A stretch of 64,000 bases of DNA from Candidatus Bathyarchaeota archaeon (GCA_022865455.1 JALHSY010000055.1:3965-67964); one strand, 5' to 3'; shown: positions 8,601-34,650, counted from the stretch's first letter. Numbers and translations: made by a program. Notes: generated by a model from the sequence alone, not told the origin.

Positions 8601-8620
8601 CGTTTTATTTGCATAAAACG
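8601..8620. promoter_or_regulatory. Palindrome CGTTTTAT-TTGC-ATAAAACG (copy 1 of 3)
   Basis: Perfect 8-bp inverted repeat with a 4-nt spacer, 165 nt upstream of the abrB-arsM operon. The same palindrome occurs at 31779-31798 and 34631-34650. Confidence 0.6.
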
Positions 8621-8910
8621 AAAACAACAGTTTCCGACTTGGCAGATTCTCCGCTCTTATGGCAGAATCAACAACTTGGATTCTTGACATCATTATTCTG
8701 AAGCCTATTCATTCAATTGCCAAAAAAGTCTGAAAAGTTACTCTTGGTCTTTGATAGAGGGGCAAAGGAACTTGAGCAATCTGTTTCATTGGCTTCAATA
8801 CTGAATGCTTTTCTTATTTCGCCGGTCTCTAGACCGCCTTCTTCCGGTAGAACTTGGCAAAGTCGACAGTATGAACAACTGGGGTTTTATGGATCGTTGT
8901 GGTGGGGTCG

Positions 8911-8935
8911 CTTAGGTCAAAGCCCACGTTTGAAC
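8911..8935 (+). repeat. 25-nt direct repeat, left copy (CTTAGGTCAAAGCCCACGTTTGAAC)
   Basis: 23/25 identical to 12718-12742 in the same orientation. The two copies bracket the 1162-aa fusion gene. Confidence 0.7.
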
Positions 8936-9129
8936 CCTGAGGTTTGATTGTGCCTTGTTTAGGCAAGCAAAAGAGAAGGGATTCAGACAGAGCAGGACGG
9001 TTGGATTAATCTATTGACGAGTTCTTGGATGTCATTCAGTTCCGCCGTAGACTCGCCGATACACCAAACTTGGCTGTTTGAGTGCATTTTATTGTCATGC
9101 AAATGAAATAGATGACTAGTTCAAAAGGA

Positions 9130-12100
9130 TTAAGTTGCATCTATTTCGCCGGTAAAGAGCCTTGGTCTAAGATTCGGGTCTCTGATCATCTCCGCATATT
9201 TTTGATATATTTTTTCTGAAGTGGTTCGAGGCACTAGCTGAAGTGAGGTTTTGAAATGCTCTGGCGTCAAAACCATTCCCTCCGCCATTTCAACTACAGT
9301 TTCCCATAGTTTCTTTAAGTCGCTCATCGAATAATGCTCTGTTAGTCTTGCGATCTCTGTCAACAAGAGTTTGCTGGAACAACTCATTCCTCTAGCTAGT
9401 GTCTGCAAATATCTCAGCCTTGTTTCAAAGTCTGGAAGCGGGAAGTATGCAGTTTTTAGTCTTCTTGCGGCAGATTGAAAAATCTTGTACGGATCATTCT
9501 CTGCCGTTATGAAAACAATTCTGGCTTTTTCGTCTTTCATGATTCTATTGTATTCATCGTTAAGCACGCCGAGAATACCCTTTTGCTTTTCTTCCAGCAA
9601 AGAGTCCGCCTCGTCTATGAAGATGACTGCGGGCATTGCCTTCCAAGCGTTGTCGACAATCAAAGCAAATTCCTTTTCAGGCTTTTCAAGCTTGAGAATA
9701 TCTTTTGCATGAATTGTGACATAGCTCTTAATGATCTTCTTCCTCTTCAAATCCTCCAGGAGACGTGAAACTACGTAGCTTTTCCCTGCGCCAGCTATAC
9801 TGAAGAGATTCAGACCAGCATAACTGGCCAGATCACGTGGTTTTCTAATGCCAACAAAGTCTTGAATGATTTGAGCTAATTTTGCCCTAATTTTCACGTG
9901 ATTTCCAATATGTACGTTTACACCTTCGAGCAACGCTTTTAGATGAGAGGCCGCAAGTTCCACATCCCTTTCGTTGTTGAAGTGGTGAACACAGATTCTA
10001 ATACATGGAGGCTTACGCAAAGATCTTACAATGATATTTGACTTTCCCAACAAGGCTACTATCTTTTCATAAGTAGCATTTTCCTCGTTTCCTTGAATCT
10101 GAAGAATTAGCATTCCAGTCTTGGCCGCATCAGTCGGGTTTAATACTCTCCATTTTGTGTTCTTGATAGCGTCCTGAAATCTTTTAACAAGCTTTTCTTT
10201 CCATTTTGAGATTTCTGAGAAACGCAGTTTTGACACTGTCCCAATCGCTTCGCCTAAGCCGATAATTTTGGCAACATCTGCAGTGCCCAATTCATAAATT
10301 TGCCCATCACTCTTTTTGGGGGCATGTTTGGGGGAAACCGTGTAAGCCGTTGAGATTGGTAAATGGACTCCAAATGGGTTATCAGCTTCAAGGTTTTCTT
10401 CCTTAGAGTATAACAGACCTGTTCCTTCTGGTCCCAACAACCATTTATGCCCATCAAAAGCGTAAAAGTCGCACCCAAGATCTTTGACATTAACGCTAAT
10501 ATTGCCAACTGCGTGGGCTCCATCTACGAGAACAAACATCTTTCTACGCAAGCCTTTCGAAGCTTGCTGGCATTTCTTCACGATCTCTTTGATAGGCAAT
10601 TGCTTACAAGCACTGAACAGTATATGGCTTAGTATTATCAACCTTGTATGGGGGCCAATTCGGCTAATGAGTTTAGGAAGCCATTCCTTTCCTTCCAAAA
10701 TCTCTTTTTTGATTGAGGCAACGTCAAAGGTTTGGCCTAAGTGGTCTTCGTAGTACTCTTTGAGACGATAGACCACATTGTGTTCGAGATCTGTTGTCAG
10801 TACTTCGTCTCCTTGTTTGAGCACTCCTCTTAAAACCAAGTCAATACTTGAAGTCGTGTTATTGGTAAATATGATAGAGTCGCTACTCTCAGCTCCGATG
10901 AATTTCGCCACGAGACTTCTAGTTTGCTCGATTTTCTCCCCGAGTTCCTTTTCTAATTCTGTCCCTATTGGTCCTTCTTCGTTTCGACGCGCCAACCATC
11001 TTTCTTGTTCGTTCAAAACTGACTTATATGTAGAAGTCAGGCCCCCACTGTTCAAGAATATTCTGTAAGATTTCAGATTAAGGTGAGCGCGAGTCCCAAA
11101 TTTATCATAAGAAAACTCCTCTGACAGACGCACTCGCAGTCGATTTGCAATGCCCACATACTCCATAAGCTCTCCTATGTCTATCAAGTCTCTCTGCAAT
11201 TCCTTCTTCAAGCCCTTGCCTAATCGCAGGTTTTTTTCCTTGAGCTCCCCAAAAAGTGACTGCAAATCCTCAACAATCAAGTCAAAAGTTCTGGAAAAAC
11301 TCACCACTATCTCCTTGTAGTCTTTTGTGTCCAAGTCTATGATTCCATTCTCAACGAGCCAATCTTTCAAATCCTGTTCGTCATCAAACAGAAGCCGTAT
11401 GCAGGGAATAAGCTTGTGTTTTATCAGGAATTTGACGTCTTTCACTCGGTACATTAGCAGAAGTAGTGATCTCACCAACTCCTTGGATGAAGGAAATTGC
11501 TTCCCACAACTGGACAATATGTTGAAAAACGAACGGACTAGTTCGTCTCCCTCTTCAGTAATGGTCTGGAACTTTGATTTCAGTCCAGCAATTGCTCGTA
11601 TCTTGCTATAAAGAACTACTTCAAAAGTCGTGCATCTAGCGTAGAACTCGACTATCAAGCGTTGTATGTCTTCATTCGGCTCAAGCATGCCAAGCCTGTA
11701 CGGTTCAATCAGCTCTCCCACATATTCATCTTCATATTTTTTGCAGTCCATTAGAATATCAAAATATTTCTCTCCAATAGTTCTAGCTGTCTTTTGAACG
11801 TCAATCTCACTACTACTTTTCTTTGTGACCGCTGAAGATATGGCGCTTCTCAATTCAGCAAGTGCAAAGTCATACTTAGTCTTAAGGAGTGGGGGCAAGT
11901 GGTTTTCCAATTCGAGCAGAGAGTTGAGCAAGTACAGTGAATTTCCGAGAGTTGACAACTCATTTGCTAGTCTCTCTACAAGCTCAACGATATCGAAGAA
12001 TTCGTCTGGCGAAACTCCGTAATTCTTAACTTGTTTAAGGATAGATTCCGAAAAGGTGTCAGGATTGCAATCTTTTCTCAATCCTGGCTCGATTATATAT

Positions 12101-12618
12101 TCATAGAAGTCTAGGAGATCTGGTTCATTCCACTCGCTAATGAAACGTTCGGGATTTTCAACCTTGTAGTCAGATTCTCTCAGCCGTTTCAGGAATTTCT
12201 CTCTTTCGCCATTCTCTAGTTTCTGAAAGACAATTTGTCCTACGTATAAATATCCGATAACCTCGTCTGGCCATATCATTATTGGAAACAGAAGATTCGG
12301 AAATCCTCTCCCCTGGTGACACCTGTAGAAATACCCTTTCTTATGCGTTCTAGCCATGTGTGCGCCTTCAGTGTCTGAAAGCAAGCACTTGAGCTGAGCT
12401 TTTTCGTTCAAAGGGCAGTCAATCATGCTTTGGCAGACGTTTCCACCCAATTCTTCGGCTCTTCTCGCAAATACTCGTGTTTTTGGAAACTTTCCAGTTA
12501 TTGGTCTTGACTGAAGATCCTCAAAAACTACAGAAACTTTTCCCTTGAATAATCTCGCAAGTCTTTCTTGCAAGAACTCCAAAAAAGACCTGTCAAGAAT
12601 TGTTGTCAGATCAGTCAT
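9130..12618 (-). CDS. Multidomain protein: PocR-like sensor domain, helical region, class-V aminotransferase/cysteine desulfurase-like PLP domain, and C-terminal AAA+ ATPase
   Basis: Uninterrupted 1162-aa ORF. The N-terminus has YRCHQG..FPIMI..VIGYLYVGQI (PocR-like). The middle has IIFTNNTTSSIDLV, VDGAHAVG and FDGHKWLLGPEGTGLLY (PLP lysine). The C-terminus has Walker A SIAGAGKSY, Walker B VIFIDEADSL and AAA-type YFPLPDFETR. Confidence 0.85.
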   Translation of the reverse strand: MTDLTTILDRSFLEFLQERLARLFKGKVSVVFEDLQSRPITGKFPKTRVFARRAEELGGNVCQSMIDCPLNEKAQLKCLLSDTEGAHMARTHKKGYFYRCHQGRGFPNLLFPIMIWPDEVIGYLYVGQIVFQKLENGEREKFLKRLRESDYKVENPERFISEWNEPDLLDFYEYIIEPGLRKDCNPDTFSESILKQVKNYGVSPDEFFDIVELVERLANELSTLGNSLYLLNSLLELENHLPPLLKTKYDFALAELRSAISSAVTKKSSSEIDVQKTARTIGEKYFDILMDCKKYEDEYVGELIEPYRLGMLEPNEDIQRLIVEFYARCTTFEVVLYSKIRAIAGLKSKFQTITEEGDELVRSFFNILSSCGKQFPSSKELVRSLLLLMYRVKDVKFLIKHKLIPCIRLLFDDEQDLKDWLVENGIIDLDTKDYKEIVVSFSRTFDLIVEDLQSLFGELKEKNLRLGKGLKKELQRDLIDIGELMEYVGIANRLRVRLSEEFSYDKFGTRAHLNLKSYRIFLNSGGLTSTYKSVLNEQERWLARRNEEGPIGTELEKELGEKIEQTRSLVAKFIGAESSDSIIFTNNTTSSIDLVLRGVLKQGDEVLTTDLEHNVVYRLKEYYEDHLGQTFDVASIKKEILEGKEWLPKLISRIGPHTRLIILSHILFSACKQLPIKEIVKKCQQASKGLRRKMFVLVDGAHAVGNISVNVKDLGCDFYAFDGHKWLLGPEGTGLLYSKEENLEADNPFGVHLPISTAYTVSPKHAPKKSDGQIYELGTADVAKIIGLGEAIGTVSKLRFSEISKWKEKLVKRFQDAIKNTKWRVLNPTDAAKTGMLILQIQGNEENATYEKIVALLGKSNIIVRSLRKPPCIRICVHHFNNERDVELAASHLKALLEGVNVHIGNHVKIRAKLAQIIQDFVGIRKPRDLASYAGLNLFSIAGAGKSYVVSRLLEDLKRKKIIKSYVTIHAKDILKLEKPEKEFALIVDNAWKAMPAVIFIDEADSLLEEKQKGILGVLNDEYNRIMKDEKARIVFITAENDPYKIFQSAARRLKTAYFPLPDFETRLRYLQTLARGMSCSSKLLLTEIARLTEHYSMSDLKKLWETVVEMAEGMVLTPEHFKTSLQLVPRTTSEKIYQKYAEMIRDPNLRPRLFTGEIDAT

Positions 12619-12717: not shown

Positions 12718-12742
12718 CTTAGGTCAATGCCCACGCTTGAAC
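12718..12742 (+). repeat. 25-nt direct repeat, right copy (CTTAGGTCAATGCCCACGCTTGAAC)
   Basis: See 8911-8935. It lies 100 nt upstream of the fusion-gene start, in the divergent promoter region. Confidence 0.7.
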
Positions 12743-14893: not shown

Positions 14894-14896
14894 AAC

Positions 14897-15550
14897 ATGG
14901 TTCTTGAAGGATTGAATGAATACGTTGCCTACATTGGGTCTGATGAAGCAGGCAAAGGTGAGTGGCTTGGTCCTCTTGTCGTGACGGCGGTTGCGTTATC
15001 AAAGCAACAACGTTCATATCTTGTTACTCAAGGAGTAATGGATAGTAAAGAACTTAGGCTTGATGTTATTGCTGAACTTGCGAAAATAATACAGAAGTCA
15101 TGCCTGTCTTACCATGTCGTCACTATTTCCCCACTTTCATTCAACGGTTTGATGAAAGAGGTAAAAGGTGAGGGACGGAGTCTAAACGACATTTTGGCAT
15201 GGGGGCACTCACAAGCAATCGGCGACGTTTTTGAAGAATTGACTAGAAACGGAATATCTGGTAAGATCAAGCTTTCAATCGATATGTTTGATAGGATAAA
15301 AACGGAAGACAGATTGAAAAGAATCATTGATTTGAGAAAATTCGATTTGGATCACCGACCCAAAGCAGAAAGCGAAACCTCTGTAGCAGCAGCAAGCATA
15401 GTCGCTCGGGCTGTGAGGGAACTTTGGATTGATGAAAAATCGAAGGAACTCCGTCTAGATTTGCGAAGGCTCTCGGTTAATGAAGCAATATCGCATTCTG
15501 ATGCTAATTCCTTTGCGAAGCTGAGTTTCTTGAAGCGCAGAAGACCCTAA
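14897..15550 (+). CDS. RNase HIII-type ribonuclease H catalytic domain protein (no N-terminal domain)
   Basis: Contains GSDEAGKGEWLGPLVVTAV, GVMDSKEL, AWGHSQAI and KAESETSVAAASIVAR. These match RNase HII/HIII catalytic motifs with the HIII-like KAES..AAASI.AR tail. Confidence 0.7.
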   Translation: MVLEGLNEYVAYIGSDEAGKGEWLGPLVVTAVALSKQQRSYLVTQGVMDSKELRLDVIAELAKIIQKSCLSYHVVTISPLSFNGLMKEVKGEGRSLNDILAWGHSQAIGDVFEELTRNGISGKIKLSIDMFDRIKTEDRLKRIIDLRKFDLDHRPKAESETSVAAASIVARAVRELWIDEKSKELRLDLRRLSVNEAISHSDANSFAKLSFLKRRRP

Positions 15551-15891
15551 TTTTGTTTGCTCGCATTTTGAATCAGAGTTATCCACTTGTTTTGACCTCC
15601 AATTTTTATTCCACAAGCTTCCGCTGGAGTCTTACCGTCTAAGCCTTCATGTGGTCTTATGAAGTTATGAAACATTTGGTAGCCCTTTAGAATTGGTGTG
15701 TCTTCTTTCTTCAAACCCCTCATGACTTTCTCTCTATCTCTCACTTCTCCATTAAACCGTTCCATTTTGTTGTTGTTTCTGTCTCCCTGAATAGTTATGT
15801 GCCTTACATGTTCTGTCCTTGTATCCTTCCTGAGATTCCAAAACTCCTTCTTGTAAGCATCGTGATAAGCTGGCAAACCATCCGTTATCAA
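15547..15891 (-). pseudogene. Truncated IS6-like DDE transposase (C-terminal half only)
   Basis: The 114 aa ITDGLPAYHDA...NNNKMERFNGEVRDREKVMRGLK...FIRPHEGLDGKTPAEA align with residues ~180-300 of the intact transposase at 18638-19579. It lacks the Zn finger and the first catalytic Asp. Confidence 0.7.
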
Positions 15892-16202: not shown

Positions 16203-16223
16203 GATACTGTTAAGTTATTTGTG
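16203..16223 (+). repeat. 21-nt repeat GATACTGTTAAGTTATTTGTG (copy A)
   Basis: Identical to 37044-37064. It is the reverse complement, with 1 mismatch, of 22161-22181. Confidence 0.75.
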
Positions 16224-18487: not shown

Positions 18488-18641
18488 GTTTTCCACCCTT
18501 CGTTAAATATCCCTTCTCTGAGAGCCAACTCATTATTATTGTTCGCAGCGTGTCTGAACACGTTTCGCCTATCGTTCCAACTAACTCTTTGTTCAGGAGA
18601 TCAGCAACATTTTCAGGAAGTGCTACTAGGACTTTTCTCAT
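18474..18641 (-). CDS. Small RHH/CopG-like protein (55 aa)
   Basis: My own translation gives MRKVLVALPENVADLLNKELVGTIGETCSDTLRTIIMSWLSEKGYLTKGGKHGKE. Its ATG overlaps the transposase TGA (ATGA). Confidence 0.4.
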   Translation of the reverse strand: MRKVLVALPENVADLLNKELVGTIGETCSDTLRTIIMSWLSEKGYLTKGGKHGKE

Positions 18642-22155: not shown

Positions 22156-22160
22156 GCCAT

Positions 22161-22181: not shown

Positions 22182-22325
22182 GCCATCACCCGACTGTTAA
22201 CACGGAGACGAATCACCCATCAAGTTAACATAACCTCGTTTTGGCTTCTGTCACGTCTTAGGGTCATGTAGCAGTGCAAAAATGCCTAGTATTGCACGTT
22301 TCGCCCCGGGAAAGAAGAGGGAGGG

Positions 22326-22924: not shown

Positions 22925-22966
22925 TCATTTTCACCCCAAACAGAAAAAGGAGGAAAGTTTGTCGCT

Positions 22967-23425: not shown

Positions 23426-23440
23426 CTTTTATCACCCCAA

Positions 23441-23463
23441 CAGAAAAAGAGCCCTTACGGGCT
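23441..23463 (-). terminator. Hairpin AGCCC-GTAA-GGGCT followed by CTTTTTCTG
   Basis: The stop codon of 23455..24006 lies in the hairpin loop. The T-run is the T5 part of the conserved leader. Confidence 0.4.
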
Positions 23464-24006: not shown

Positions 24007-24038
24007 TAGTATTTTCACCCCGAAGAAAAAAGGAGGAG

Positions 24039-24992: not shown

Positions 24993-25086
24993 GTTGATGG
25001 TGTGTATTAGTTTCTGAAGTTTCTCGCTCGTATTTTCACCCCAAAGAAAAAGAAAAAGAGGGGTTATGGAAGGTCTAAGAATCGGT

Positions 25087-25287
25087 TCACCTGTAGGTCT
25101 GTGAAGCCTTCACGTTTGGCGTTCTCTCGGAAAACTTCTTCCCAGCTCTTTCCAAACTGGGGAAAGCTGTTGTTCCAGATTTGCTGTATTCTGTCACTCT
25201 CTTGACTCCGTGTACCATTCTGACAAATGCGTCGTTTTCTGCCTGCTCGTCCCTGCATCTCTTCTGGTGTTTACTTCTTATCACCAT
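25087..25287 (-). CDS. Hypothetical small basic protein (cassette array)
   Basis: I prefer the ATG at 25287, preceded by GGGGTGAAGAA, over the overlapping 25064..25258 frame. Confidence 0.45.
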   Translation of the reverse strand: MVIRSKHQKRCRDEQAENDAFVRMVHGVKRVTEYSKSGTTAFPSLERAGKKFSERTPNVKASQTYR

Positions 25288-25299
25288 TTCTTCACCCCG

Positions 25300-25809
25300 T
25301 TAGAAAAAGGAGGGATTGGCTATTTCGTACATTCCAAGCTCATCATATATTCTGTTGTAGCCTTCGATGTTTTGGTCGCTGAAACTCCATGCTCTTACCA
25401 GTCTGAGCAACTGCCGGCTTAATCTGATCTGTTTGCCAGCTATCTTGTACGCCCATTTTGCCCGGTCCAGTATGTAGGATATCGTGTTTACTTCAGGGGA
25501 CTCTGTTGTGCCGGTCTTTCTGTACCGTTCTACTTTTGCCCAATAATTGTCGATGGTGTAATTTTCTTCTCTAGGACAGTCAGGATAAGTCTCTTCTAGG
25601 TACTCATTGTTCTCCAGGCAGAGATACCATGTTGAGTTGTTACCGTTATAGCGTTCCACGTCCAGCTGTAGTAGTAATTGGCAATCTCGGCAATGTGGTA
25701 GATGCTCAATGAATTTGACTTCACCTCTCAGAAAGGTAATGGCTTCCATCAGCTGTCCTTCAACAATGAGCAGCCACTCACGAGTGTTCAATCGGTTCAG
25801 AAGCATCAA
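25300..25809 (-). CDS. Hypothetical protein (cassette array)
   Basis: 169-aa ORF. The reading frame stays open for a further 90 nt up to the leader at 25899 without an ATG. Confidence 0.55.
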   Translation of the reverse strand: MMLLNRLNTREWLLIVEGQLMEAITFLRGEVKFIEHLPHCRDCQLLLQLDVERYNGNNSTWYLCLENNEYLEETYPDCPREENYTIDNYWAKVERYRKTGTTESPEVNTISYILDRAKWAYKIAGKQIRLSRQLLRLVRAWSFSDQNIEGYNRIYDELGMYEIANPSFF

Positions 25810-25933
25810 GAGTTTCTTGCTTGTCTTCGGCGGCGCCTTCGGTTTCTCCTCAGGTCGTTGAATCCGCTGTAAAAGTAGATGTATTTTGCTCGTAAGGACA
25901 CCCCAAACAGAAAAAAGGGAAAAGGAAGTTGAC

Positions 25934-26137
25934 TTATACGATTCTCAGCACTAGCCAGATTACGCCCGCTATTATCGCCAATGCCAGGAAGAACAGGAAG
26001 CCTAGGAAGAACAGGATTGTAAGGATCGGCCTAAGCAATATGGCCATGACTACGGCGCCCAGAAGACTTAGGACAGACAGTGCCAACAGCAGCGCGGCTA
26101 TGCCAAGAAATATTCTTTTTCCAATCATTGACATCAC
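25934..26137 (-). CDS. Small membrane protein, two predicted TM helices
   Basis: Contains IFLGIAALLLALSVLSLLGAVVMAILL and ILFFLGFLFFLALAIIAGVIWLVL. The leader abuts the start. Confidence 0.5.
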   Translation of the reverse strand: MMSMIGKRIFLGIAALLLALSVLSLLGAVVMAILLRPILTILFFLGFLFFLALAIIAGVIWLVLRIV

Positions 26138-26168
26138 CCCGAACAGAAAAAAAAGGGAAGGCTATGGG

Positions 26169-26507
26169 CTATATTGCTGAAACTACTCTGAACTTGTTTC
26201 CGCATGACTCGCATTCTACGGTATAGTTGGCGTCGGGTTCGACTGTCCGAGTCTCGCCGCAGCGTGGACATTCAACATCAACAATGTCATCAAGCGTCAA
26301 GGGAAGGTGTACGACTGGAATTTGGTCAGTTTTGGCTGCCGCAATCTTGACTCTTTCTTCAAGCTGAGTTGTCGGTTCACATCCTAGGCTTTGGTAATGT
26401 TCTTCACAGAGGTATGCATGTGGTCCGAACTGTGTTTTGCTGTCATATTTTGCAGGTCTATCTCTTCCTGACTGTTTGCATACGTCACAGTTGGGAAGTT
26501 TCTCCAT
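26169..26507 (-). CDS. Zinc-ribbon protein
   Basis: Contains CDVC...CEEH and CPRCG...CESCG Cys pairs. Confidence 0.55.
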   Translation of the reverse strand: MEKLPNCDVCKQSGRDRPAKYDSKTQFGPHAYLCEEHYQSLGCEPTTQLEERVKIAAAKTDQIPVVHLPLTLDDIVDVECPRCGETRTVEPDANYTVECESCGNKFRVVSAI

Positions 26508-26554
26508 CTGTATTGTTCTCGTCTGGTTTCACCCCAAACAGAAAAAAAGAGAAA

Positions 26555-26821
26555 CTATCTTCTGATTTCAACAAAAGCTTTCAGGGAGAATCGCTTGTTG
26601 GTTATGGGTTCCGGCGGAAACTTGATAGCTTCCTGAATGTAGAAGTCAGCAAAGTAATATGTGTCACACTGTCTCCAAGCATCTGCAACTATATGTGCCG
26701 CTATGCTCTCTGGATTCTCCGGGTTCGTTTCCTCTTTTGGGATAACTCTGGACTTCAAAAGGTTCTCCCTAACGTAGTTTCTAAGTTTCTCGAAGGCCTC
26801 GCTTGAACAATCGTCCAACAT
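26555..26821 (-). CDS. Hypothetical protein (cassette array)
   Basis: 88-aa ORF directly after leader copy 26828. Confidence 0.5.
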   Translation of the reverse strand: MLDDCSSEAFEKLRNYVRENLLKSRVIPKEETNPENPESIAAHIVADAWRQCDTYYFADFYIQEAIKFPPEPITNKRFSLKAFVEIRR

Positions 26822-26902
26822 TTAGTACACCCCGAACAGAAAAAGGAGAAACTAATGTAAGTTTTCTTCACCCCAATAGAAAAAGGGGAAGCTAGTTGGA
26901 AG

Positions 26903-27938
26903 TTAAGTTATGAATATTGGCATCCGCATTACGTTTTTTGCTGTTGTCTGGTAGTATTTGACTAGCACTTGAAGGTTTGTTGAGATGGCCCTGTAGGGTT
27001 CGCCTACTTGTTCGTAGCTGAATGACGCTTTCAGAGGCTTAGGTGAGTCTGACAGCTGGTCTTTTGTTTTTCTGAGCTCCCACTCGTTAAACCCGCTGCC
27101 AACGCATCCACGATATCTTCCGTTTTCATCTGCTAAAACCAGGCTGCCGAAGAATGAGTTTCTAGCGTTCTCTCCAGCTGTGTATCCAACTACGTTGCAG
27201 ACCTCGAAAAGCCAGTTCTTCACTTTTAGCCAGCTGTAGGACCTCTCATGCTCGTATGGGCTCTCAATTTGTTTTGCTATTAAGCCTTCGCGGTTCATGC
27301 TGATGGTCTCTTCCCATGCACTTAAGAGGTCTTTCTGGAAAGGAACGAATTGTACAGTGGCATCTTTGACCTTGGAGAGAAGTTGCTGCAGCAGCTCTTT
27401 TCTTTTCCAGTAAGGTATCTTCTCAGTATTGCCGCTCTTGACCTTGAGAACATCGAAAGCTTCGAATGTTATGGGAAAACTGTCTCTTAACATGTAGTCT
27501 GGGAACTGGGTTGCACATCTTCGTTGTGCCGACGTAAACTCTTCCTCGCCCGTTTTAGGGTTTATGTAGACGACTTCGCCGTCTAGCGTCCACATGCCAG
27601 GAATCTGTTTGAGAGCCTTAACTATCTCTGGCAGGCGTATTTTCTACGCATACGACAATGACGATACTGTCTAATTGCGTTATGCTGTGTAGATTACGCC
27701 GTGCCTGTTCTGCAATGTTACATTACCGTCGCCTATAGCGATGACACGTGTACCGTCCCATTTACGGGCTATTTTAGGAGGTAGCTTTCCGTTCGGCGAC
27801 GAAACCGCGTATCATCAGTTTCTTTAGTTGTTCTACAATGGCTTTCCTGTACGCTACGGTTGCAGCAGGCCCGTCTAAGCCGTTTTGTCTGACTAGTGAC
27901 ATGTCTACTTCGACTTCATGGCATAGCATTGGCATCAT
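26903..27938 (-). pseudogene. ATP-dependent DNA ligase, disrupted near motif I
   Basis: The ORF 26903..27595 carries WTLDGEVV, EGLIAKQIESPYE, SWLKVK and GSLVLAD..GRYRGCVGSGF. My own translation upstream finds MMPMLCHEV...GFVAERK, stop at 27774. A +1 frame then gives ARKWDGTRVIAIGDGNVTLQNRHG (KxDGxR), stop at 27680. A third frame gives RLPEIVKALKQIPGMWTLDG. Confidence 0.7.
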
Positions 27939-27939
27939 T

Positions 27940-28125
27940 CTAGATTCTTCCTTCCTCGCTGAGTTTGGTGTTGAACGCTTTAATGTTGTCTGCTAACCAT
28001 TGGCCAGCATCCCGATCTAGAAATTCCTTGAACTCTTGCAGCTCTGCTTCTGTCGGTTCCCGTCCAAAAACATTGTCTTTCAGCTGTTCCTTCAGTTCCT
28101 CATCTGTCCACTTCACTTGATACAT
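27940..28125 (-). CDS. Hypothetical small acidic protein (cassette array)
   Basis: 61 aa. Its stop abuts the ligase ATG, and the leader lies upstream at 28131. Confidence 0.5.
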   Translation of the reverse strand: MYQVKWTDEELKEQLKDNVFGREPTEAELQEFKEFLDRDAGQWLADNIKAFNTKLSEEGRI

Positions 28126-28168
28126 TTTTACACCCCGTAGAAAAAAGGGGGATTTGAACCCACAGGGG

Positions 28169-28960
28169 TTACTTCTTCTTTGCAGACGGGATAATGAGAA
28201 GGGCCTGGATCGGGGGCAGTGTCTCGAGGGTCTTCACTGGCCGTATTGGGATCTTCACGCCTGGCACGTCTCGCAGGCAGCGGTATTCGACTTTCTTGTT
28301 GCTGATTCGGAGCAGCCATACGAATTGGCCGTCTTTCACTATGGGTACGAGGAACGCGTAGTACTGTGTGAAGCCGCCGTTGGAATAGGTGGTTATCGCT
28401 ATTTCGTCGCGTTTGATTGCGGCGTCAGCTTCATTCCAGAGTTTTAGGTCGTTGCGTGGATCCGCTGCGGGCAGCTCGTATTCTTCATGTATCAAGAAAC
28501 CCTCAAGCATTGTTGAAGAGACCCAATAGGCATCTCCCTGGTCCTGCACTTCCGTTGGTGTTTCTTTGACTTCGATGCGTTCGGTCGGAGGGTAAGGTGC
28601 AACAGGATCTCCGATGCTGCTGTCAGGGTTCACTAGGTAATACTCGATCTTTTTCTTGTCAACCGTTTCGCCTTTCTTGTTGACGGCAAGATTCTTTGTG
28701 TGCTCGAGTATGCATCTAGCCTTAGCTACAGGTATCAGGTTGCCTTTCGAGTCCTTCAGTATGGTTTCGACCTGCAACTCTTCGCCTGTACCGACAATCT
28801 CCCAATGGCTCGTGTCGACTACTCGACACTCCCTCACTGGTTCGCCGTCTACCAGCTCCGTAAGCTGCGGGTCTTGGATCAGTAGTGCGTTGCCGACTCT
28901 CTGCTTGCACACTCTCACGTCTGCATTGCCTATTTTCAGCCAAATCGTCGATGTGGGCAT
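28169..28960 (-). CDS. Hypothetical protein, weak Ku-like pattern
   Basis: 263 aa with N-terminal TIWLKIGNADVRV and C-terminal YELPAAD...EIAITTYSNGGFTQYYAFLVP...LLRISNKKVEYR. These are loosely reminiscent of prokaryotic Ku. It lies next to the ligase. Confidence 0.5.
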   Translation of the reverse strand: MPTSTIWLKIGNADVRVCKQRVGNALLIQDPQLTELVDGEPVRECRVVDTSHWEIVGTGEELQVETILKDSKGNLIPVAKARCILEHTKNLAVNKKGETVDKKKIEYYLVNPDSSIGDPVAPYPPTERIEVKETPTEVQDQGDAYWVSSTMLEGFLIHEEYELPAADPRNDLKLWNEADAAIKRDEIAITTYSNGGFTQYYAFLVPIVKDGQFVWLLRISNKKVEYRCLRDVPGVKIPIRPVKTLETLPPIQALLIIPSAKKK

Positions 28961-28995
28961 TTTCTACACCCCAAAACAGAAAAAGGAGGGAAAGT

Positions 28996-29229
28996 CTAGT
29001 CTACTATCTTCGGGAACTTGTTCACGAACAAGTATATGCTGTCAGAGATTGAGCATTGATGTTTCTCAAGCAGTTCCTCAAACTTCGCTTTAGTGATAAC
29101 ATGGTCGTTCGGATCAATTTGATGGTCTAGTCTTTCAATATCGATTGCTGGAGTTGAATTCAGGAAGCACTCTTTTAAGCAAGCAACTACTCGGTCATAG
29201 ACTTTCTTCTTTTCATCCATAAGAAACAC
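28996..29229 (-). CDS. Hypothetical protein (cassette array)
   Basis: 77 aa, with the leader upstream at 29227. Confidence 0.5.
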   Translation of the reverse strand: MFLMDEKKKVYDRVVACLKECFLNSTPAIDIERLDHQIDPNDHVITKAKFEELLEKHQCSISDSIYLFVNKFPKIVD

Positions 29230-29259
29230 CCCAATAGAAAAAAGAGAGGGATTTTTAGA

Positions 29260-29487
29260 CTACCGTTTCTTCCTCAAGCGAGCTGCCACTATTGTTCTCA
29301 ATGTGAATCTGGGTTCACCTAGAAACTTGGAGCATGCGTACTTGACTAGACAGTCGTTACAGTCTCCGTCCCGCTGCAGCTTGCGGCACTTCAGAACCTT
29401 CACTTGGCAGCCGACAGCCACTCTGTTTGGAATGACTATGGTCACCAGTTTTCCTTCGTTCTCGCAGAATACTGACGTGAACATCAC
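29260..29487 (-). CDS. Hypothetical Cys-rich small protein (cassette array)
   Basis: 75 aa, with the leader upstream at 29485. Confidence 0.5.
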   Translation of the reverse strand: MMFTSVFCENEGKLVTIVIPNRVAVGCQVKVLKCRKLQRDGDCNDCLVKYACSKFLGEPRFTLRTIVAARLRKKR

Positions 29488-29508
29488 CCCGACAGAAAAA
29501 AGGAGAGT

Positions 29509-29793
29509 TTAGAAGCTGTCTTTCAGCCGACGCATAATCTCTTCTTCATTGAAATTTTCAGCTTCGATAATCTCCGTTGGGATAACAATCGGATGAAGAG
29601 CATTGCGAGCGGTTCTTATCTCCGATGAACCTACTATGTTTTTGACTGCCTCTATAATGGCTTCGCCTTCTCCTACAGCTTCTAGAATCTGCACACTCAC
29701 CAGAACAACAGCTATTTTAGGCAAAACTTTCACCCCAGAAAGCATTGTAGCGTCTACGCTAACCCTGCCCCTTTTCCTTACCGTGCAAATCAC
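29509..29793 (-). CDS. Hypothetical protein, first gene of cassette array
   Basis: The track start at 29793 is a GTG. An internal ATG at 29745 (MLSGVKVL) is an alternative. No full leader copy lies upstream. Confidence 0.4.
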   Translation of the reverse strand: MICTVRKRGRVSVDATMLSGVKVLPKIAVVLVSVQILEAVGEGEAIIEAVKNIVGSSEIRTARNALHPIVIPTEIIEAENFNEEEIMRRLKDSF

Positions 29794-30436: not shown

Positions 30437-30925
30437 TTACAGCTTTTTCTTCTGCTTGCTCTGCTCTAGCGCCTTCTGCATCCATTCGGACAGGCTGAAG
30501 CGGGGTGCGACGGGGTGTCCTAGCTCTTTCAAAGAGTCAGGAATAGCCACAGCATCGCAGTATTTCTGAGCTTGGACTAGAGGCTTCACTTTGTCTTGGA
30601 ATGGCTTGCGGGCTGTGGCAGCCGTCTTTCTGAGGTCTGTCAAGTCCTTCTGGTTGGCTTTGATTGCGGCTCTCAGGTCATCAGTAGCGTCTTCTATGTA
30701 AGAGTCGATGTTCTCAGAGAGTTGTTTACCCTTCTCTCTGACAGCCTTAGTCTCGTCTTTGGTCTTCTCAGCCATGTCCTGCTGAGTCAGTCGGCGAGCC
30801 ATGAAATAGCCGTATCTTTCAGCTACAAGCTCAGTAAAAGCCTCTAGCATGTCCATCTTGGATGGAACTGCCTCGGCTGGAACAGCCTGAGCAGTTTGAG
30901 CAGATTGGGCATTACGTCTTGGCAA
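30437..30925 (-). CDS. Hypothetical helical protein
   Basis: 162-aa ORF with a TTG start. An internal ATG giving MDMLEAF is possible. Confidence 0.45.
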   Translation of the reverse strand: MPRRNAQSAQTAQAVPAEAVPSKMDMLEAFTELVAERYGYFMARRLTQQDMAEKTKDETKAVREKGKQLSENIDSYIEDATDDLRAAIKANQKDLTDLRKTAATARKPFQDKVKPLVQAQKYCDAVAIPDSLKELGHPVAPRFSLSEWMQKALEQSKQKKKL

Positions 30926-30998: not shown

Positions 30999-31292
30999 TT
31001 ACTCCCTGTCGCCCAATCCAGAAAAAGGGATATTTTGGAGACTTGGAAACTTGCGTATAGCTTTCCAAAACCCCACGTTATTGATTACACGTTCCAGAGT
31101 GCCGACTGTCTCCTTATCGCTGAACCGCACAATACTAAAATTGTCGAAGTCATGCAGAGGTATCCTTATCACAAAAACCCAACATTCCTTATGCGACTTG
31201 TTTCTGTGTTTTGCCATGCAGTCCTTAAACGTGGAAACGTCTTGACTCTTGACTATGTAACCGCAGTCTTTACACTTGCCCACGTACAACAT
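30999..31292 (-). CDS. Hypothetical zinc-finger-like protein
   Basis: 97 aa with a CKDCG...C..H..SH pattern. Confidence 0.45.
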   Translation of the reverse strand: MLYVGKCKDCGYIVKSQDVSTFKDCMAKHRNKSHKECWVFVIRIPLHDFDNFSIVRFSDKETVGTLERVINNVGFWKAIRKFPSLQNIPFSGLGDRE

Positions 31293-31744: not shown

Positions 31745-31778
31745 AAAAGCACTTCGTGCAAACAACTATTTAAACATG

Positions 31779-31798
31779 CGTTTTATTCACATAAAACG
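31779..31798. promoter_or_regulatory. Palindrome CGTTTTAT-TCAC-ATAAAACG (copy 2 of 3)
   Basis: Same 8+4+8 structure and the same GAA 3' flank as the copies at 8601 and 34631. Confidence 0.6.
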
Positions 31799-32136
31799 AA
31801 CATGACAAAGACATATCTTTGTCCAAATCTGAATAATCTTGCCATATTTCCATTATTCCGACATTATTTAACCTTAGAAGCTAGAACGGATAAGGTAAGC
31901 TAGGCTATGGAAGCTTAAGGACTCTATTCTAAGGCTTAATATGCGACAGGAACCCAAATCTAAGGATAAGTATCCACCTGAAAGCTCCTTTCAAGGATAT
32001 GTTCAACAGAGAAGATTCTAAGAGAAGTTACCTTGGAAGCGACCGTGTAGTCTGGGATTTTCATTTTGGCCTGTTTTAGCAAGAGGGAGGAGACGCCGCC
32101 TGCGCACTTACGTCTAGGGAGTTGTCTTTTCTCAGA

Positions 32137-32916
32137 ATCTCGAGAGCTGTTCCAAGTCCAGATATGCTTCCTCCTATAATTGAGATTTGTCTGGCAGACA
32201 AGTTGTTCGCCTCGAGATGATTTATTTTCACATTCTGTCTATTTGTGCTTTTAGTTCCAGATACTTCTCGAGATATTGCCAGTTGAAGGGATTATCTCGA
32301 GATGGTAAAATATTTGTACTCGAGACTGAAGAAGAGGACAGTCTCGAGAAGAAGGCGCCAGATGAGCCAGATGAGCTTAAAGGGTTATTCGAGAAGCCTC
32401 GAGATGAAGGAAAAGAGGATGAGGAGATACTCAGAGAGGTATTCGAGTCAAATCCTAATGCCGACATAAAGAAGCTTGTGGAAGCAACTGGGCTTCCTGC
32501 CCTGACACTTGGCAGGATCAAAGGACTAATCTCGATACGACGTAAGCGAGACTCGAGAGCATCTGGGAAGCATCTGGAAGAGGGCGAGGTAAGTGAACCG
32601 GACGCCAGGCAGCTTGTGGCTCAGTTCGGTCGGGATGGACTGAACAAGCTCAAACGCGGGTTCCTGAAGAAAACTTTGGCTCTTGCGCCTGGAATGGCTG
32701 ACAAGACAGCCGAGTGGATCCTTCACAAGTGGGACATAAACCCGAGAGTTCAGGACGATCCGAACACATTCTATGAGATGCTTCACAACGATGCTGGGTT
32801 GAAACCGAACATCGCCATTTCGATTGCCAAGGATGTTTTCAGTTTGGAGGAGCAGTACGCTGATATTCTCGAGGACAAGGGCGAGAAACCTATTTTCATC
32901 TCAGGCAGTCCTCGAG
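32137..32916. repeat. Cluster of ten CTCGAG(A) iterons
   Basis: CTCGAG occurs at 32139, 32211, 32267, 32296, 32319, 32343, 32398, 32552, 32868 and 32911, plus TTCGAG, CTCGAT and CTCAGAG variants. The sites fall in all three phases of the overlapping ORF. Confidence 0.75.
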
Positions 32917-33176
32917 TCTCTGGCTCGCCTACTGGAGAACCTATTCTGTACCGAAGAGACCAGTATTCACAGAGCACGGGGCCTTTCGAAGTGTCTGGGA
33001 GAGGAGGTCGCGGAAATTATCCTGACCAGCCAGGACAGTTTCTGACTATGGAAGCATATCTGAAACTTGAGCGTGAAAAAGAGGAAAAACGACGGATAGA
33101 GAAGATTGAAGACAAAATGGAGAAAATGACCCAGGAAATCGATTCTTTCAAGAAAGGCTTCGATATATGGGTCTGA
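32187..33176 (+). CDS. Hypothetical protein (5' third doubtful)
   Basis: 329-aa ORF with a TTG start. The C-terminal two-thirds look protein-like. The first ~130 codons coincide with the iteron cluster and may be non-coding. Confidence 0.45.
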   Translation: MSGRQVVRLEMIYFHILSICAFSSRYFSRYCQLKGLSRDGKIFVLETEEEDSLEKKAPDEPDELKGLFEKPRDEGKEDEEILREVFESNPNADIKKLVEATGLPALTLGRIKGLISIRRKRDSRASGKHLEEGEVSEPDARQLVAQFGRDGLNKLKRGFLKKTLALAPGMADKTAEWILHKWDINPRVQDDPNTFYEMLHNDAGLKPNIAISIAKDVFSLEEQYADILEDKGEKPIFISGSPRVSGSPTGEPILYRRDQYSQSTGPFEVSGRGGRGNYPDQPGQFLTMEAYLKLEREKEEKRRIEKIEDKMEKMTQEIDSFKKGFDIWV

Positions 33177-33220
33177 GTGGAGAAGACTACATAGAGTCTC
33201 TTGTTTTTCATTGGCTTTTC

Positions 33221-34207
33221 CTAGGAGCGTTTCTTTGCACCGAATTCGCCGTTTCTAATTGCTTGGAAAACTTGACTAACACTCCTAAAGAAGTGTGAAG
33301 GAATGGTCACCAATGCTCTAGTCAAAGCAAGAGCGAAATCGGTGTGTTCAGCCGTTCCACCCTGCAAGACGTCTGCCCAAAGATATGGACGGTATCTTGC
33401 AAGGCTGGAAGCCGCGAAAACAAGGATATAGTCTTTGAAAAAATTGGATGGAGAGTAGGTAAGGTCAATAAAATCGGTAGAAAAACGCTTTCCAATTAAC
33501 TCCATATTTGCTGTTTCATCAAAAGCCTTCGCATCAAAAGCTAGGAGCTGCTTTAGCGAAATGCATTCAGAGCCTTTGAATAGAAAGTGGTTGTTCGCAA
33601 CAAAAGCGATTTCTTCTTTCTCCATTATCGGTAGGAAAGGAGAAAAGGCCAAACAGGCGCCCAGAAGTACTCCAGTATCAATGAATCTCTGAAAGATCGT
33701 TCCGTTGCTCTTAATTACTTTAATCTCCATGTCCAGAAGTTTATCCGACCATTTGGAAATTTTTACTCCATGAGAAGTGGCATGTTCAGGAGTCCACTTG
33801 AAAAACGTATAGTTGAAGAATGAAATGAAGCAGTGTATAGAGTAATGGTACAGGACAGGAGCCACCATGTCACTTGTCCGAGAAGCTATCTTCCACAGTT
33901 CAATGGCATTTTTCAAAAGCGCAACATTCTGCGAAGCCACTTCAGGGTGCTTTCCCGAATACTCAGTCGTTACAACGTCGACGCGGTTTCCGCTCATCTC
34001 TGAATATCGTTTTACCACATCGTCAAGAGGAACAAACGTCTTGTTAATCTGACCCTGTAGGGTCTTATAGGGGTGCAGAAGAGTGAGAGTTTCGAAGAGC
34101 CTCCAATATTCATCACTTATGAATGAACGCAGCACTGCCAATCCCATCATGAGCTTCTTGTGGCTACTCTTAAGCTTTGCACAAGGGTGTGATATCGAGA
34201 GTGCCAT
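33221..34207 (-). CDS. Hypothetical protein, possibly YaaC-like
   Basis: 328 aa. PVLYHYSIHCFISFF and FAASSLARYRPYLWADVLQG resemble my recollection of the YaaC-like family. Unverified. Confidence 0.5.
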   Translation of the reverse strand: MALSISHPCAKLKSSHKKLMMGLAVLRSFISDEYWRLFETLTLLHPYKTLQGQINKTFVPLDDVVKRYSEMSGNRVDVVTTEYSGKHPEVASQNVALLKNAIELWKIASRTSDMVAPVLYHYSIHCFISFFNYTFFKWTPEHATSHGVKISKWSDKLLDMEIKVIKSNGTIFQRFIDTGVLLGACLAFSPFLPIMEKEEIAFVANNHFLFKGSECISLKQLLAFDAKAFDETANMELIGKRFSTDFIDLTYSPSNFFKDYILVFAASSLARYRPYLWADVLQGGTAEHTDFALALTRALVTIPSHFFRSVSQVFQAIRNGEFGAKKRS

Positions 34208-34221
34208 ATCTCATCCATGTT

Positions 34222-34494
34222 TCACAACAATCTGAAGTAGGCCACCTTCTCAAGATCTTTCTCTCCCTTCTTTTCTCTGACTAGTGGGTGACGTTCGACA
34301 GTCTTCAGAGCCGACTTCACATTTTCCTCTTTGAGATCAGTTGCTCTAGCGATGTCTGCAGGTGAGCGCCAAACATTGGGATTTTGTCTCAAATACAAGA
34401 AGACTCTAGCCCGCGAACCAAAAGGGAGTTCTTCTGTTCTTTCATCGTCCGCTACTGGCTTTCCGTCTCTAATTCCGATTTCTATCCTTTTCAC
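34222..34494 (-). CDS. Small winged-helix DNA-binding protein (paralog of 62234..62503)
   Basis: RVFLYLRQNPNVWRSPADIARATDLKEENVKSALKTVERHPLV...YFRLL aligns at roughly 45 percent identity with the ORF at 62234. Confidence 0.6.
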   Translation of the reverse strand: MKRIEIGIRDGKPVADDERTEELPFGSRARVFLYLRQNPNVWRSPADIARATDLKEENVKSALKTVERHPLVREKKGEKDLEKVAYFRLL

Positions 34495-34630
34495 CTCCTA
34501 TGCCCTATAGAAAGGCCAAACCTGACCCCAATTAGAGTTCTTGAGCTCCTTTTATTTTAGTTTTGCGCCTCATTTTCGGCGCTTCATTTGTCCACAGCGG
34601 CATTGCACAGCGCATTTCAATGCATCTTTC

Positions 34631-34650
34631 CGTTTTATGCCTATAAAACG
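34631..34650. promoter_or_regulatory. Palindrome CGTTTTAT-GCCT-ATAAAACG (copy 3 of 3)
   Basis: Lies 137 nt upstream of the wHTH gene start at 34494. Confidence 0.6.

Follow-up and report, generated by a model that had tools for sequence, protein, structure and literature searches.

A palindrome at the module borders of tRNA-integrated islands in Bathyarchaeia, possibly a promoter-linked protein-binding site

Why should one and the same palindrome stand at three distant intergenic places in a single stretch of archaeal DNA, and what could read it there? In the 64-kb window analysed here (the whole stretch of 64,000 nucleotides, from a Candidatus Bathyarchaeota archaeon), the sequence CGTTTTAT-N4-ATAAAACG is present in three exact copies at 8601-8620, 31779-31798 and 34631-34650, with the spacers TTGC, TCAC and GCCT, respectively. 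These copies are termed P1, P2 and P3, and the site in general is termed P. An earlier note had considered such a repetition to be far beyond chance, and this is confirmed by 100 dinucleotide-preserving shuffles, in which the pattern was found 0 times. The window holds no further copies with up to two mismatches and has no Rfam match at gathering score. Distances of 2.9-23 kb separate the three copies, which bracket gene modules and all belong to one island of at least 55 kb. At the island end, no conserved element lies further out than P1 (plus strand, extended site 8598-8623). P2 (plus strand) lies in 894 nt of non-coding DNA that separate a minus-strand multi-gene module from the ORF at 32187, and P3 is inverted relative to P2 (minus strand, spacer AGGC in its own polarity) and lies between the wHTH-YaaC genes and plus-strand genes at 34953-36723. 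On at least one side of the respective region there is a gene start for each of the three copies, with 165 nt from P1 to the minus-strand ORF start at 8436 and 137 nt from P3 to the one at 34494, exactly as had been described.

The earlier note had suggested, as one possibility, a dimeric DNA-binding protein that ties a chromosomal arsenic operon to the mobile module. A switch of this kind has to be given up, as P1 belongs to a tRNA-integrated island and not to the arsenic/AbrB promoter. The AbrB/MazE-like gene (8179-8436, minus strand, Pfam PF04014) and the SAM methyltransferase gene that comes after it (7340-8182) are chromosomal neighbours outside the element. Of 10 contigs that encode an identical AbrB-like protein, 8 have a complete tRNA-Asp gene in front of it and lack P, even with two mismatches allowed; absence at orthologous promoters is what the earlier note had named as refuting. 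In L295, L298 and L302 this intact tRNA gene is found 76 nt upstream of the AbrB-like gene, at the very position where the window has only a 3'-end remnant of tRNA-Asp(GTC) (AAATCTCGGCCAGGGCGCCA, 8505-8526, minus strand). A tRNA gene search of the window gave no hit, and the remnant is the attachment-site repeat at the integrase-distal border of the island. It is followed by the "A" module (8527-8600, minus strand), the 74 nt with which the island ends; the TATA-like box of this module (8587-8594, ATATATTT as minus-strand sequence) is directed away from P1. The order in the window is thus the last ~20 nt of tRNA-Asp, 74 nt, P1, and at least 55 kb of island, and deep "empty-site" contigs diverge from the window sequence at 8526. 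P1 is island sequence, ~75 nt from the border at tRNA-Asp, and empty sites lack it; the identical AbrB-like protein occurs both with and without the island.

The island carries defence, mobile and IS genes and ends in a tyrosine-integrase gene that runs past the window end, of which the C-terminal zinc-ribbon tail is seen at 63672-63998 (minus strand, "Int2" family); this tail clusters with L182:9924-11192 (PF00589 plus zinc ribbon), and tyrosine integrases are encoded in 10 of ~23 longer P loci. The A module is 98% identical in L001, L258, L196, L182, L297 and L301, with a different sequence past P in these loci, and the identical unit of A and P is joined to at least six different continuations in other contigs. 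A tRNA 3' fragment lies ~66-75 nt from P in three flank families, A, A' and G. The host of the island is an uncultured sediment archaeon of the Bathyarchaeia, and the palindromes belong to mobile DNA in its tRNA gene.

Outside the window, the core of P forms tight clusters of two to four copies in five other Bathyarchaeia genomes and is found in ~45 sediment-metagenome contigs, always in intergenic position. In GTDB, the motif with the following AA gave 43 loci, 7 of which belong to Bathyarchaeia (5 genomes, clustered within 4-9 kb), and the other 36 are single matches in unrelated taxa; viral contigs gave just unrelated single matches. P is restricted to one Bathyarchaeia lineage and is clustered there. 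Where long sequences were scanned it is not frequent genome-wide, which the earlier note would have taken as a refutation: in a complete 2.35-Mb relative the motif with AA is confined to one 8-kb block, and in a 2.0-Mb contig the motif is confined to one 16-kb region. A single 8-kb block in 2.35 Mb, together with a single island in the window, speaks against a dispersed repeat of the REP/MITE type.

The conserved site is longer than the three copies alone would indicate, namely ~26 bp of the consensus TTK-CGTTTTAT-NNNN-ATAAAACG-MAA. The GAA flank that had been regarded as asymmetric is part of this longer symmetric consensus, as judged by 27-28 unique left and 17-21 unique right flanks of related sites (T, T and G/T at positions -3 to -1, A/C and A at +1 and +2). 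A true asymmetry exists in the spacer, since all 10 exact sites known before the metagenome search can be oriented in such a way that the spacer ends in C, and by this polarity the copies 1 and 2 point in the same direction and copy 3 is inverted. The arms of the dyad are invariant around at least 15 different spacers among related sites and stricter than those of typical operators, although this strictness is in part due to ascertainment, as most sites came from an exact search. Copies with one to three mismatches exist, variants with a mismatch in one arm persist in at least five loci, and the L242 copy has a symmetric double change (CGTTTTAG...CTAAAACG). P can also be parsed as 10/11-6-10/11 (tTTKCGTTTTA-TNNNNA-TAAAACGMAAa), and its hairpin is more stable than that of shuffled sequence (z of -3.3 to -5.8). 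Only 5 nt from P2 there is another palindrome, "B" (31804-31823, plus strand, GACAAAGA-CATA-TCTTTGTC), with the same 8-4-8 geometry, which adjoins P at 16 sites and exhibits paired symmetric changes (GACAAACA/TGTTTGTC and GCAAAGA/TCTTTGC); as single-stranded DNA, P and B together fold with z = -7.0. Other palindromes and short repeats are also present in this 0.9-kb non-coding region of P2, which is conserved in several related elements.

The flanks of P are shuffled. Across ~45 sites the flank classes recombine freely, with the same sequence on one side and unrelated sequence on the other, and the break lies exactly at P. Homology of the window to L021 and L028 ends at 31777, at P2, and the end points of homology to other loci are 8624, 31777 and L178:1135. 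Among metagenome contigs, branch points fall at 8601 and 8622-8624, which gives at least three alternative right flanks and one alternative left flank, and again at 31777-31779, where alternative left flanks join P2. The inverted P2 and P3 enclose a 2.85-kb module (31799-34630) with a 329-aa ORF (32187-33176), a YaaC-like protein (33221-34207) and a wHTH protein of 90 aa (34222-34494, minus strand), and comparable P-bracketed modules are found in L178, L242, L244, L245, L011 and L029+L021. L198 and L305 repeat the arrangement at P3, L190 has another module attached to the outer flank of P3, and run X18 has a variant of the spacer. A contig of run X5 joins 33135 to 34643, so that a form without the YaaC-wHTH part may exist, with intervening letters possible at the join. 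Adjacent P sites have opposite polarity in 7 of 8 pairs, a small sample in which polarity was taken from one spacer base or from flank homology. As these 20-26 bp are the sole sequence common to otherwise unrelated modules, it is likely that modules are joined, swapped and lost there, and the exact end of homology between genomes at P would be accounted for in this way.

There is also a putative link to promoters, which is one-sided and follows the polarity of the site. Of 27 unique flanks on the non-C side, 11 have a 7-mer of only A and T at 3-16 nt from the arm, compared to 1 of 17 on the C side (Fisher p = 0.015; background 3.7%). In 11-20 of the 27 unique flanks there is a TATA-like box at 4-6 nt from one of the arms, although the left-flank classes may be distant homologues of each other and not independent cases, and about a third of the sites have no box. 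The boxes read TTTATATA or TTTAAATA and are directed away from P. At P2, the box (31767-31774, minus strand) has the sequence TTTAAATA, is separated from the palindrome by 4 nt and is directed toward the minus-strand module that starts at 31292. L275 and L208 have homologues of the first two genes of this module (30999-31292 and 30437-30925), likewise on that side of P, and the first of the two recurs also in L175 and L244. The T-rich arm of P itself forms, together with the spacer, an A/T box TTTTATWW; with the AAAC spacer, which is common, this box is a perfect TTTATAAA. Most other sites have a separate TATA-like box, 4-6 nt beyond the opposite arm and directed away. In the window, a gene reads away from each copy on the side of the TATA box (the non-C side).

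With respect to the neighbouring genes, the positions are diverse. Intergenic gaps of 90-125 nt hold many copies, in L245 P is within a 123-nt divergent intergenic region, and many copies follow gene 3' ends by 25-120 nt; by ORF calls that are noisy, 34 gene 3' ends and 28 5' ends face P. In L236 and L176 the site is between two convergent genes, and in seven related elements it comes after the final gene of the operon, 25-34 nt behind the stop codon. Neither kind of position is accounted for by a site that acts purely as a promoter operator. Conservation in relatives gives a divided picture, since P is absent at the orthologous AbrB promoter but five related mobile elements retain it, with its position unchanged, in front of a conserved operon of five genes, and one of these copies carries the symmetric double change given above.

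The earlier note had further named the wHTH protein next to P3 as one to be checked for binding. Against this, a paralogue in the window (62234-62503) and a homologue in L176 have no palindrome upstream, and L190 has the P3 flank joined elsewhere. The two wHTH families next to P, W1 and W2, have no relation detectable by hhalign, no single regulator family recurs near the ~45 related sites, and no DNA-binding protein family is common to the P loci. From the original idea, the dimeric DNA-binding protein remains as the likeliest reader of the site, and the links to arsenic/AbrB, to wHTH and to an origin fail.

As the breakpoints fall at P on both sides in many independent comparisons, it could be asked whether P is a dedicated site for site-specific recombination, with inverted recombinase-binding arms of 10-11 bp around a crossover spacer of 4-6 bp, at which a tyrosine recombinase (host XerA or element-encoded) inserts, inverts and exchanges modules. 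P would then be an archaeal counterpart of the pdif sites that flank the dif modules of Acinetobacter. This is the main rival reading, possible, albeit doubtful. In its favour are the modules bracketed by two P sites, the alternating polarity, the reading of P as 11-6-11 as in the dif definition, the single P cluster per genome, the enrichment of integrase genes near P, and a scar-like order in L011 (P, 18 nt, half a P). Spacers also recur with unrelated flanks (TTGC with at least four left and five right flanks, AAAC with at least five left and four right flanks), as would be expected if partner sites needed identical spacers. However, the three spacers in the window are all different, and a fixed crossover side was not found, as the spacer is the same in 21 of 30 left-sharing and in 21 of 75 right-sharing pairs. 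The recombinase is not constant either (the families Int1 and Int2 differ), at nine loci the 10 kb around an Int2 homologue contain no P, and the element integrases evidently attach at tRNA genes and not at P. Shared sequence of 20-26 bp could give the same mosaics without a dedicated enzyme, and the one-sided TATA box is left unexplained. The inner arm bases of dif in E. coli are ATAA|TTAT, of which TTTA|TAAA in P is the reverse.

Integrase-related functions other than crossover were considered as well. P might be an accessory site in the "arm" of attP, bound by an excision factor, an architectural protein or the N-domain of the integrase and needed in cis for integration and excision, with internal copies as relics of former element ends. 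The distance of ~66-75 nt to the tRNA-derived attachment repeat in the families A, A' and G and the conserved cap (att repeat, 74 nt, P) with variable cargo beyond it would agree with such a role, which is nevertheless unlikely, as P2 and the operon-flanking copies of L178, L244 and L245 have no tRNA fragment nearby, P is present in elements with two different integrase families, and Int2 homologues elsewhere have no P. The attC sites of integrons are imperfect palindromes of 55-140 bp with the consensus R''(RYYYAAC) ... R'(GTTRRRY), accompanied by an intI gene. P was rejected as such a site: it has 20-26 bp, reads GTTTTAT...ATAAAAC, which is the opposite arrangement without RRR, and the integrases are ordinary PF00589 enzymes at tRNA sites. 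A bidirectional transcription stop at module ends, as a DNA cruciform or as an RNA hairpin with U-rich arms, would make sense for the many copies behind gene 3' ends and for the stable hairpin, the arms of which offer U4 runs to polymerases from both directions. It is very unlikely all the same, since a terminator needs no exact conservation of 16-22 nt, the runs are no longer than T4, copies are also in short divergent promoter regions, one-arm variants persist, and one metatranscriptome contig reads straight through P. Hardly credible, finally, is an origin-recognition element of the chromosome or the mobile element, which had been suggested for the palindrome and is unsupported. P2 does lie in the conserved non-coding region with other palindromes and short repeats, but the copies enclose genes and are kilobases distant from each other, P1 caps an island end, many copies sit in the short gaps mentioned above, and no Orc1/Cdc6 or Rep gene is among the ORFs scanned against Pfam. 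Archaeal ORB origin repeats, which P presumably does not resemble, are grouped within ~1 kb, several of them about an A/T-rich unwinding region, and have orc1/cdc6 as a neighbour.

Several known systems bear comparison with P. In Acinetobacter, plasmid and chromosomal dif modules are flanked by pdif (XerC/XerD) sites (PMC13141974, PMC6449649). Like these, P is a short inverted-repeat site with variable spacer between gene modules, neighbouring sites alternate, the same module has different neighbours, spacers are shared in different contexts, and the cargo includes toxin-antitoxin and defence-type genes. Unlike them, P probably differs from dif in sequence, has perfectly symmetric arms and no linked Xer recombinase, its recombination is proposed from sequence, it is hosted by tRNA-integrating archaeal islands and not by Rep_3 plasmids, and its one-sided TATA box suggests a transcriptional role. 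The archaeal dif/XerA system also has an inverted repeat with short spacer, conserved flanks and neighbouring inverted repeats, at one locus per chromosome, with two copies at one location in S. solfataricus (Cortez et al. 2010, PMC2958812). P shares these features, including the single locus per chromosome, but unlike archaeal dif it is found in few Bathyarchaeia genomes, inside obvious mobile DNA, and P1 is absent from island-free strains. Conjugative plasmids of Sulfolobus (the pNOB8/pING family) reportedly have a palindromic 16-bp recombination motif in several copies per element that borders variable regions and deletion variants. P is likewise a short palindrome in several copies per archaeal mobile element at the borders of variable regions, but it has a different sequence and its host belongs to a different archaeal phylum. 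Temperate phages have repeated operators, and in lambdoid phages "linker" sequences mark mosaic boundaries; P is similar to both in being a short conserved site that is repeated between the genes of a mobile genome, near promoters and at mosaic joints. The "stoperators" of mycobacteriophage L5 are said to be repeated asymmetric 13-mers with a known repressor, and in contrast P is a perfect dyad with two to four copies per locus and a binder that is only hypothetical.

It is about as probable as not (roughly 0.5) that a dimeric protein of these mobile elements binds P as a promoter-linked site, and that P doubles as the shared sequence at which modules recombine. Protein binding at P, its regulatory effect and the mode of recombination are inferred. 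The palindrome would be the invariant core of a symmetric protein-binding site of ~26 bp, carried by a family of tRNA-integrating mobile elements or genomic islands in one Bathyarchaeia lineage, and the candidate regulator could be a product of either element or host. As there is an A/T box in the arm and a TATA-like box outside the opposite arm, a dimeric regulator on the dyad would sit on or beside TBP/TFB sites, and when bound it would control the transcription that leaves the module border.

The palindrome CGTTTTAT-N4-ATAAAACG, here called P, has exactly three matches in the window, at 8601 (P1), 31779 (P2) and 34631 (P3), all of them intergenic, and no further copy is found there with up to two mismatches. 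There was not a single match in 100 dinucleotide-preserving shuffles. The three-copy observation of the earlier note stands, and so do its distances to the two ORFs on the minus strand (8436 and 34494). The consensus drawn from the unique flanks is longer, TTK-CGTTTTAT-NNNN-ATAAAACG-MAA, and the site has a polarity, in that the spacer can be oriented to end in C in 10 of 10 exact sites that pre-date the metagenome search. P1 and P2 have the same polarity, and P3 is inverted. An A/T-only box of 7 nt lies 3-16 nt from the non-C arm in 11 of 27 unique flanks, but on the C side in only 1 of 17 (Fisher p = 0.015; background 3.7%). In the outward direction from P, these boxes read TTTATATA, TTTAAATA and similar, and outward is the direction in which an archaeal TATA box is usually read. 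The T-rich arm together with the spacer is an A/T box in itself; in the abundant class with AAAC spacers this box is TTTATAAA, and the outer box is missing there.

A GTDB scan with one genome per prokaryotic species and the motif plus its AA flank as query gave 43 loci, 7 of them from five Bathyarchaeia genomes and the remaining 36 being single matches in unrelated taxa. The Bathyarchaeia copies are clustered: in a complete 2.35-Mb chromosome they are confined to one 8-kb block (L011, with exact sites at 1038 and 5193 and degenerate ones at 5039 and 5066), and on a 2.0-Mb contig three copies lie within 9 kb, in two neighbouring blocks (L029 and L021). Searched without the AA, the 16-base motif gave only unrelated single matches among those listed for GTDB genomes, and the 17 matches in viral contigs are all unrelated and have no flank homology. 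The metagenome scan gave at least 120 loci, and about 45 sites, most of them from freshwater-sediment projects, have flanks in common with the window or with one another. Due to this clustering and the restriction to Bathyarchaeia, P is taken to be a lineage-specific, locally clustered element and not a genome-wide repeat. The same 16-base palindrome occurs at least twice per contig in several marine Flavobacteriaceae (Muriicola, Eudoraea, Kriegella and others; L099, L102, L109, L086/L105), where the flanks do not resemble those of the archaeal sites, and may be an unrelated regulatory site of convergent sequence in these bacteria.

The AbrB-like protein encoded next to P1 is found in identical form on at least 24 public contigs, ten contexts of which were compared. 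In 8 of these 10, an intact tRNA-Asp(GTC) gene lies 76 nt upstream of the AbrB-like gene, ordinary housekeeping genes lie beyond it, and the palindrome is absent even with two mismatches allowed. In the window and in the other two contexts (L297, L301), the tRNA-Asp is reduced to its last ~20 nt (8505-8526 in the window), followed by a conserved module A of 74 nt (8527-8600), a P1-type site with the spacer TTGC, and then differing cargo; deep metagenome contigs that represent the empty site diverge from the window at 8526. The empty contexts and the tRNA remnant thus place P1 within an island that is integrated at tRNA-Asp, about 75 nt in from the integrase-distal end, and the at least four different upstream contexts at the AbrB-like gene in public contigs mark the tRNA-Asp(GTC) site as an integration hot spot. 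The arrangement of A and P is also present in L001, L258, L196 and L182, and in two further flank families the distance between P and a tRNA 3' fragment is about 66-72 nt. Next to P, the related loci have such fragments only and no intact tRNA gene, and the window contains no tRNA gene at all. The proposal that the palindrome links the arsenic operon with the mobile module is refuted by these empty sites, and the AbrB-like protein is inconsistent as its partner, since most contexts of the identical protein lack P. The 90-aa wHTH protein (34222-34494), which has a paralogue at 62234-62503, does not fit this role either, and a common wHTH binder was dismissed because two wHTH families are found beside P without detectable relatedness. 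As the reader of P, a putative dimeric binding protein continues to be preferred.

The island comprises at least 55 kb, from 8527 to the window end at 64000, directly upstream of the host AbrB-like and methyltransferase genes, and between 28 and 48 kb the read depth in other samples is at no point back to the core level. Among its products are a CAP12-type TIR protein, an RNase HII-like protein, GmrSD, two IS240-type transposases, a UPF0175/DUF3368 pair, a DNA methylase, a ligase fragment, a YaaC-like protein, HATPase_c_3 and DEAD-helicase proteins, and HD-CE and AIPR proteins; a zinc-finger protein is encoded at 30999-31292. The last ORF of the window (63672-63998) encodes the zinc-ribbon tail that belongs to a tyrosine integrase. 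Its family (Int2) is also found near P in L182, L258 and L032, and a second integrase family on six other P-bearing contigs; at nine loci with Int2 homologues there is no P within 10 kb, so that P is not the own site of Int2 and this integrase is ruled out as the enzyme acting on P. Terminal repeats that would indicate circular contigs were not found.

Several other features of the island deserve mention. Just within it, an unusual fusion protein of 1162 aa (9130-12618) combines a PocR sensor, a class-V aminotransferase/cysteine-desulfurase and an AAA ATPase domain. A stretch of ~40 nt at 8897-8938 (about GTGGTGGGGTCGCTTAGGTCAAAGCCCACGTTTGAACC), which overlaps a 25-nt direct repeat described in the earlier note (8911-8935 / 12718-12742), has a very high summed depth in sediment metagenomes, 626 versus 43 beside it in run X11, with many differing sequences on either side, and a related sequence adjoins P in L011, L229 and L269 (flank class M); the ~40-nt stretch may represent a further attachment or repeat element. 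The terminal repeat GATACTGTTAAGTTATTTGTG at 16203-16223, 22147-22193 (inverted) and 37032-37078 apparently comes from an insertion sequence of the IS240/IS6 type, transposase genes of which lie at 18638-19579 and 15547-15891; those at 22.1 and 37.0 kb form an inverted pair around a 14.8-kb segment with P2 and P3. Between the co-directional minus-strand genes at 22900-29510, there are at least 12 copies of a CACCCCAAACAGAAAAAGGAGG-like sequence, which on the coding strand is a T-rich spacer with a GGGGTG ribosome-binding site. The CTCGAG-rich stretch 32009-32315, at the 5' part of a 329-aa ORF, has a close relative on a 3.2-kb sediment metatranscriptome contig, where the depth of 88 is far above the surroundings, and this relative may be an abundant RNA and not coding sequence.

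P2 and 15 related P sites are adjoined by a second 8-4-8 palindrome, B, which in the window is GACAAAGA-CATA-TCTTTGTC (31804-31823). Its variation among the sites consists of symmetric paired changes. B is probably a second binding site with a putative reader of its own. Small ORFs that run through or start at a palindrome (8430-8693; an ATG in module B) were discarded, as protein conservation is absent, and a hairpin in module A was rejected for lack of covariation, as judged by eye.

With respect to its flanks, P is a joint between exchangeable sequences. The segment 8502-8624 is 98% identical to L001 and both sides differ beyond it, and L021 and L028 cease to be homologous to the window at 31777. 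In sediment metagenomes, the branch points of the assembly graph coincide with the palindrome: the left flank of P1 has at least three alternative right flanks, branching at 8622-8624, its right flank is also found behind one other left flank, joined at 8601, the right side of P2 has at least three alternative left flanks, and the outer flank of P3 occurs also with another spacer and another partner. The flank classes of the ~45 related sites, designated by letters, combine freely (G+C, G+B, G+I; K+I, K+B), and class A has at least five different partners. Pairs of P bracket a 2.85-kb module in the window (P2-P3), modules of 3-6 kb in L011 and L029/L021, and a conserved five-gene operon in L178, L242, L244 and L245, and neighbouring sites alternate in polarity in 7 of 8 adjacent pairs. 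These last four loci, together with L259, L236 and L225, represent a family of small integrative elements of sediment Bathyarchaeia, in which the operon between the two P sites consists of genes for a C2H2 zinc-finger protein (~286 aa; L178:3027-3887), a zinc-ribbon protein and a PadR-like wHTH of 93 aa (L178:1183-1464) together with two small ORFs, and which have a tyrosine integrase of 410-470 aa. For the A-P-B arrangement in L011 and L032, the idea that it represents an empty site into which the 23 kb from P1 to P2 had been inserted was rejected, because A-type flanks end in tRNA 3' fragments and are thus element ends, and because the spacers of P1 and P2 differ.

Most of the data can be accommodated by either of two readings. 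The one preferred here, with a probability of roughly one half, is that P is a putative promoter-linked protein-binding site. This is suggested by the dyad with its unconstrained spacer, the TATA box that lies on one side only and at a fixed short distance, the genes that are read away from P1, P2 and P3, the location of P within very short divergent intergenic regions, and the fact that five related elements retain P upstream of one and the same operon, in one case with a symmetric double substitution. The mosaicism would then follow from P being the sole sequence that unrelated modules have in common. On the other hand, a regulator gene common to the P loci was not found, and of the gene ends next to P about half are 3' ends, P lying between convergent genes at some sites. 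The extensive shuffling of flanks, the bracketing of modules by P pairs with alternating orientation, the same spacers with unrelated flanks and a possible 11-6-11 parse would be expected of a site dedicated to recombination, comparable to pdif sites and dif modules, which is the second, less likely reading. No recombinase is linked to P, however, the evident integrase targets are tRNA genes, and the TATA box is left unexplained. Nor does a fixed crossover side emerge: a spacer tied to the C-arm flank, which would imply one, was considered and rejected, with the same spacer in 21 of 30 left-sharing versus 21 of 75 right-sharing pairs.

Smaller shares of the probability fall to an accessory site of an attachment arm, to a terminator hairpin and to an origin element. 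A terminator is disfavoured by the only moderate stability of the hairpin and by one assembled contig of the metatranscriptome run X33 that spans P, reading through; Rfam families were not detected in the window. For the origin element, which the earlier note had offered as its other explanation, there is no support. More speculatively, and rather improbably, P might be the crossover site of an archaeal cassette exchange equivalent to the bacterial dif modules, where a homodimeric tyrosine recombinase (the host XerA or an enzyme of the element) would join sites that share a spacer, so that the tRNA-integrated defence islands of Bathyarchaeia could gain, invert and trade modules, the one-sided TATA box serving as an outward promoter for the incoming module.

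Phages and plasmids are already known to have repeated operators and sites at module boundaries. In formal terms, P comes closest to dif modules; we know of no dif-module-like exchange system reported in Archaea. The literature searched does not appear to describe the motif, its confinement to Bathyarchaeia islands that integrate at tRNA genes, or the combination of promoter polarity with a module joint. A tempting mis-annotation is corrected, as the arsenic genes merely border a tRNA-Asp integration hot spot. Bathyarchaeia are abundant uncultured sediment archaea with barely described mobile elements, and P offers a simple sequence by which the ends and the internal joints of their mobile islands can be marked. 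It thereby raises the question of how archaeal defence islands are assembled from modules, be it through a promoter/operator with a second role as recombination linker, or by a true exchange of the dif-module type.
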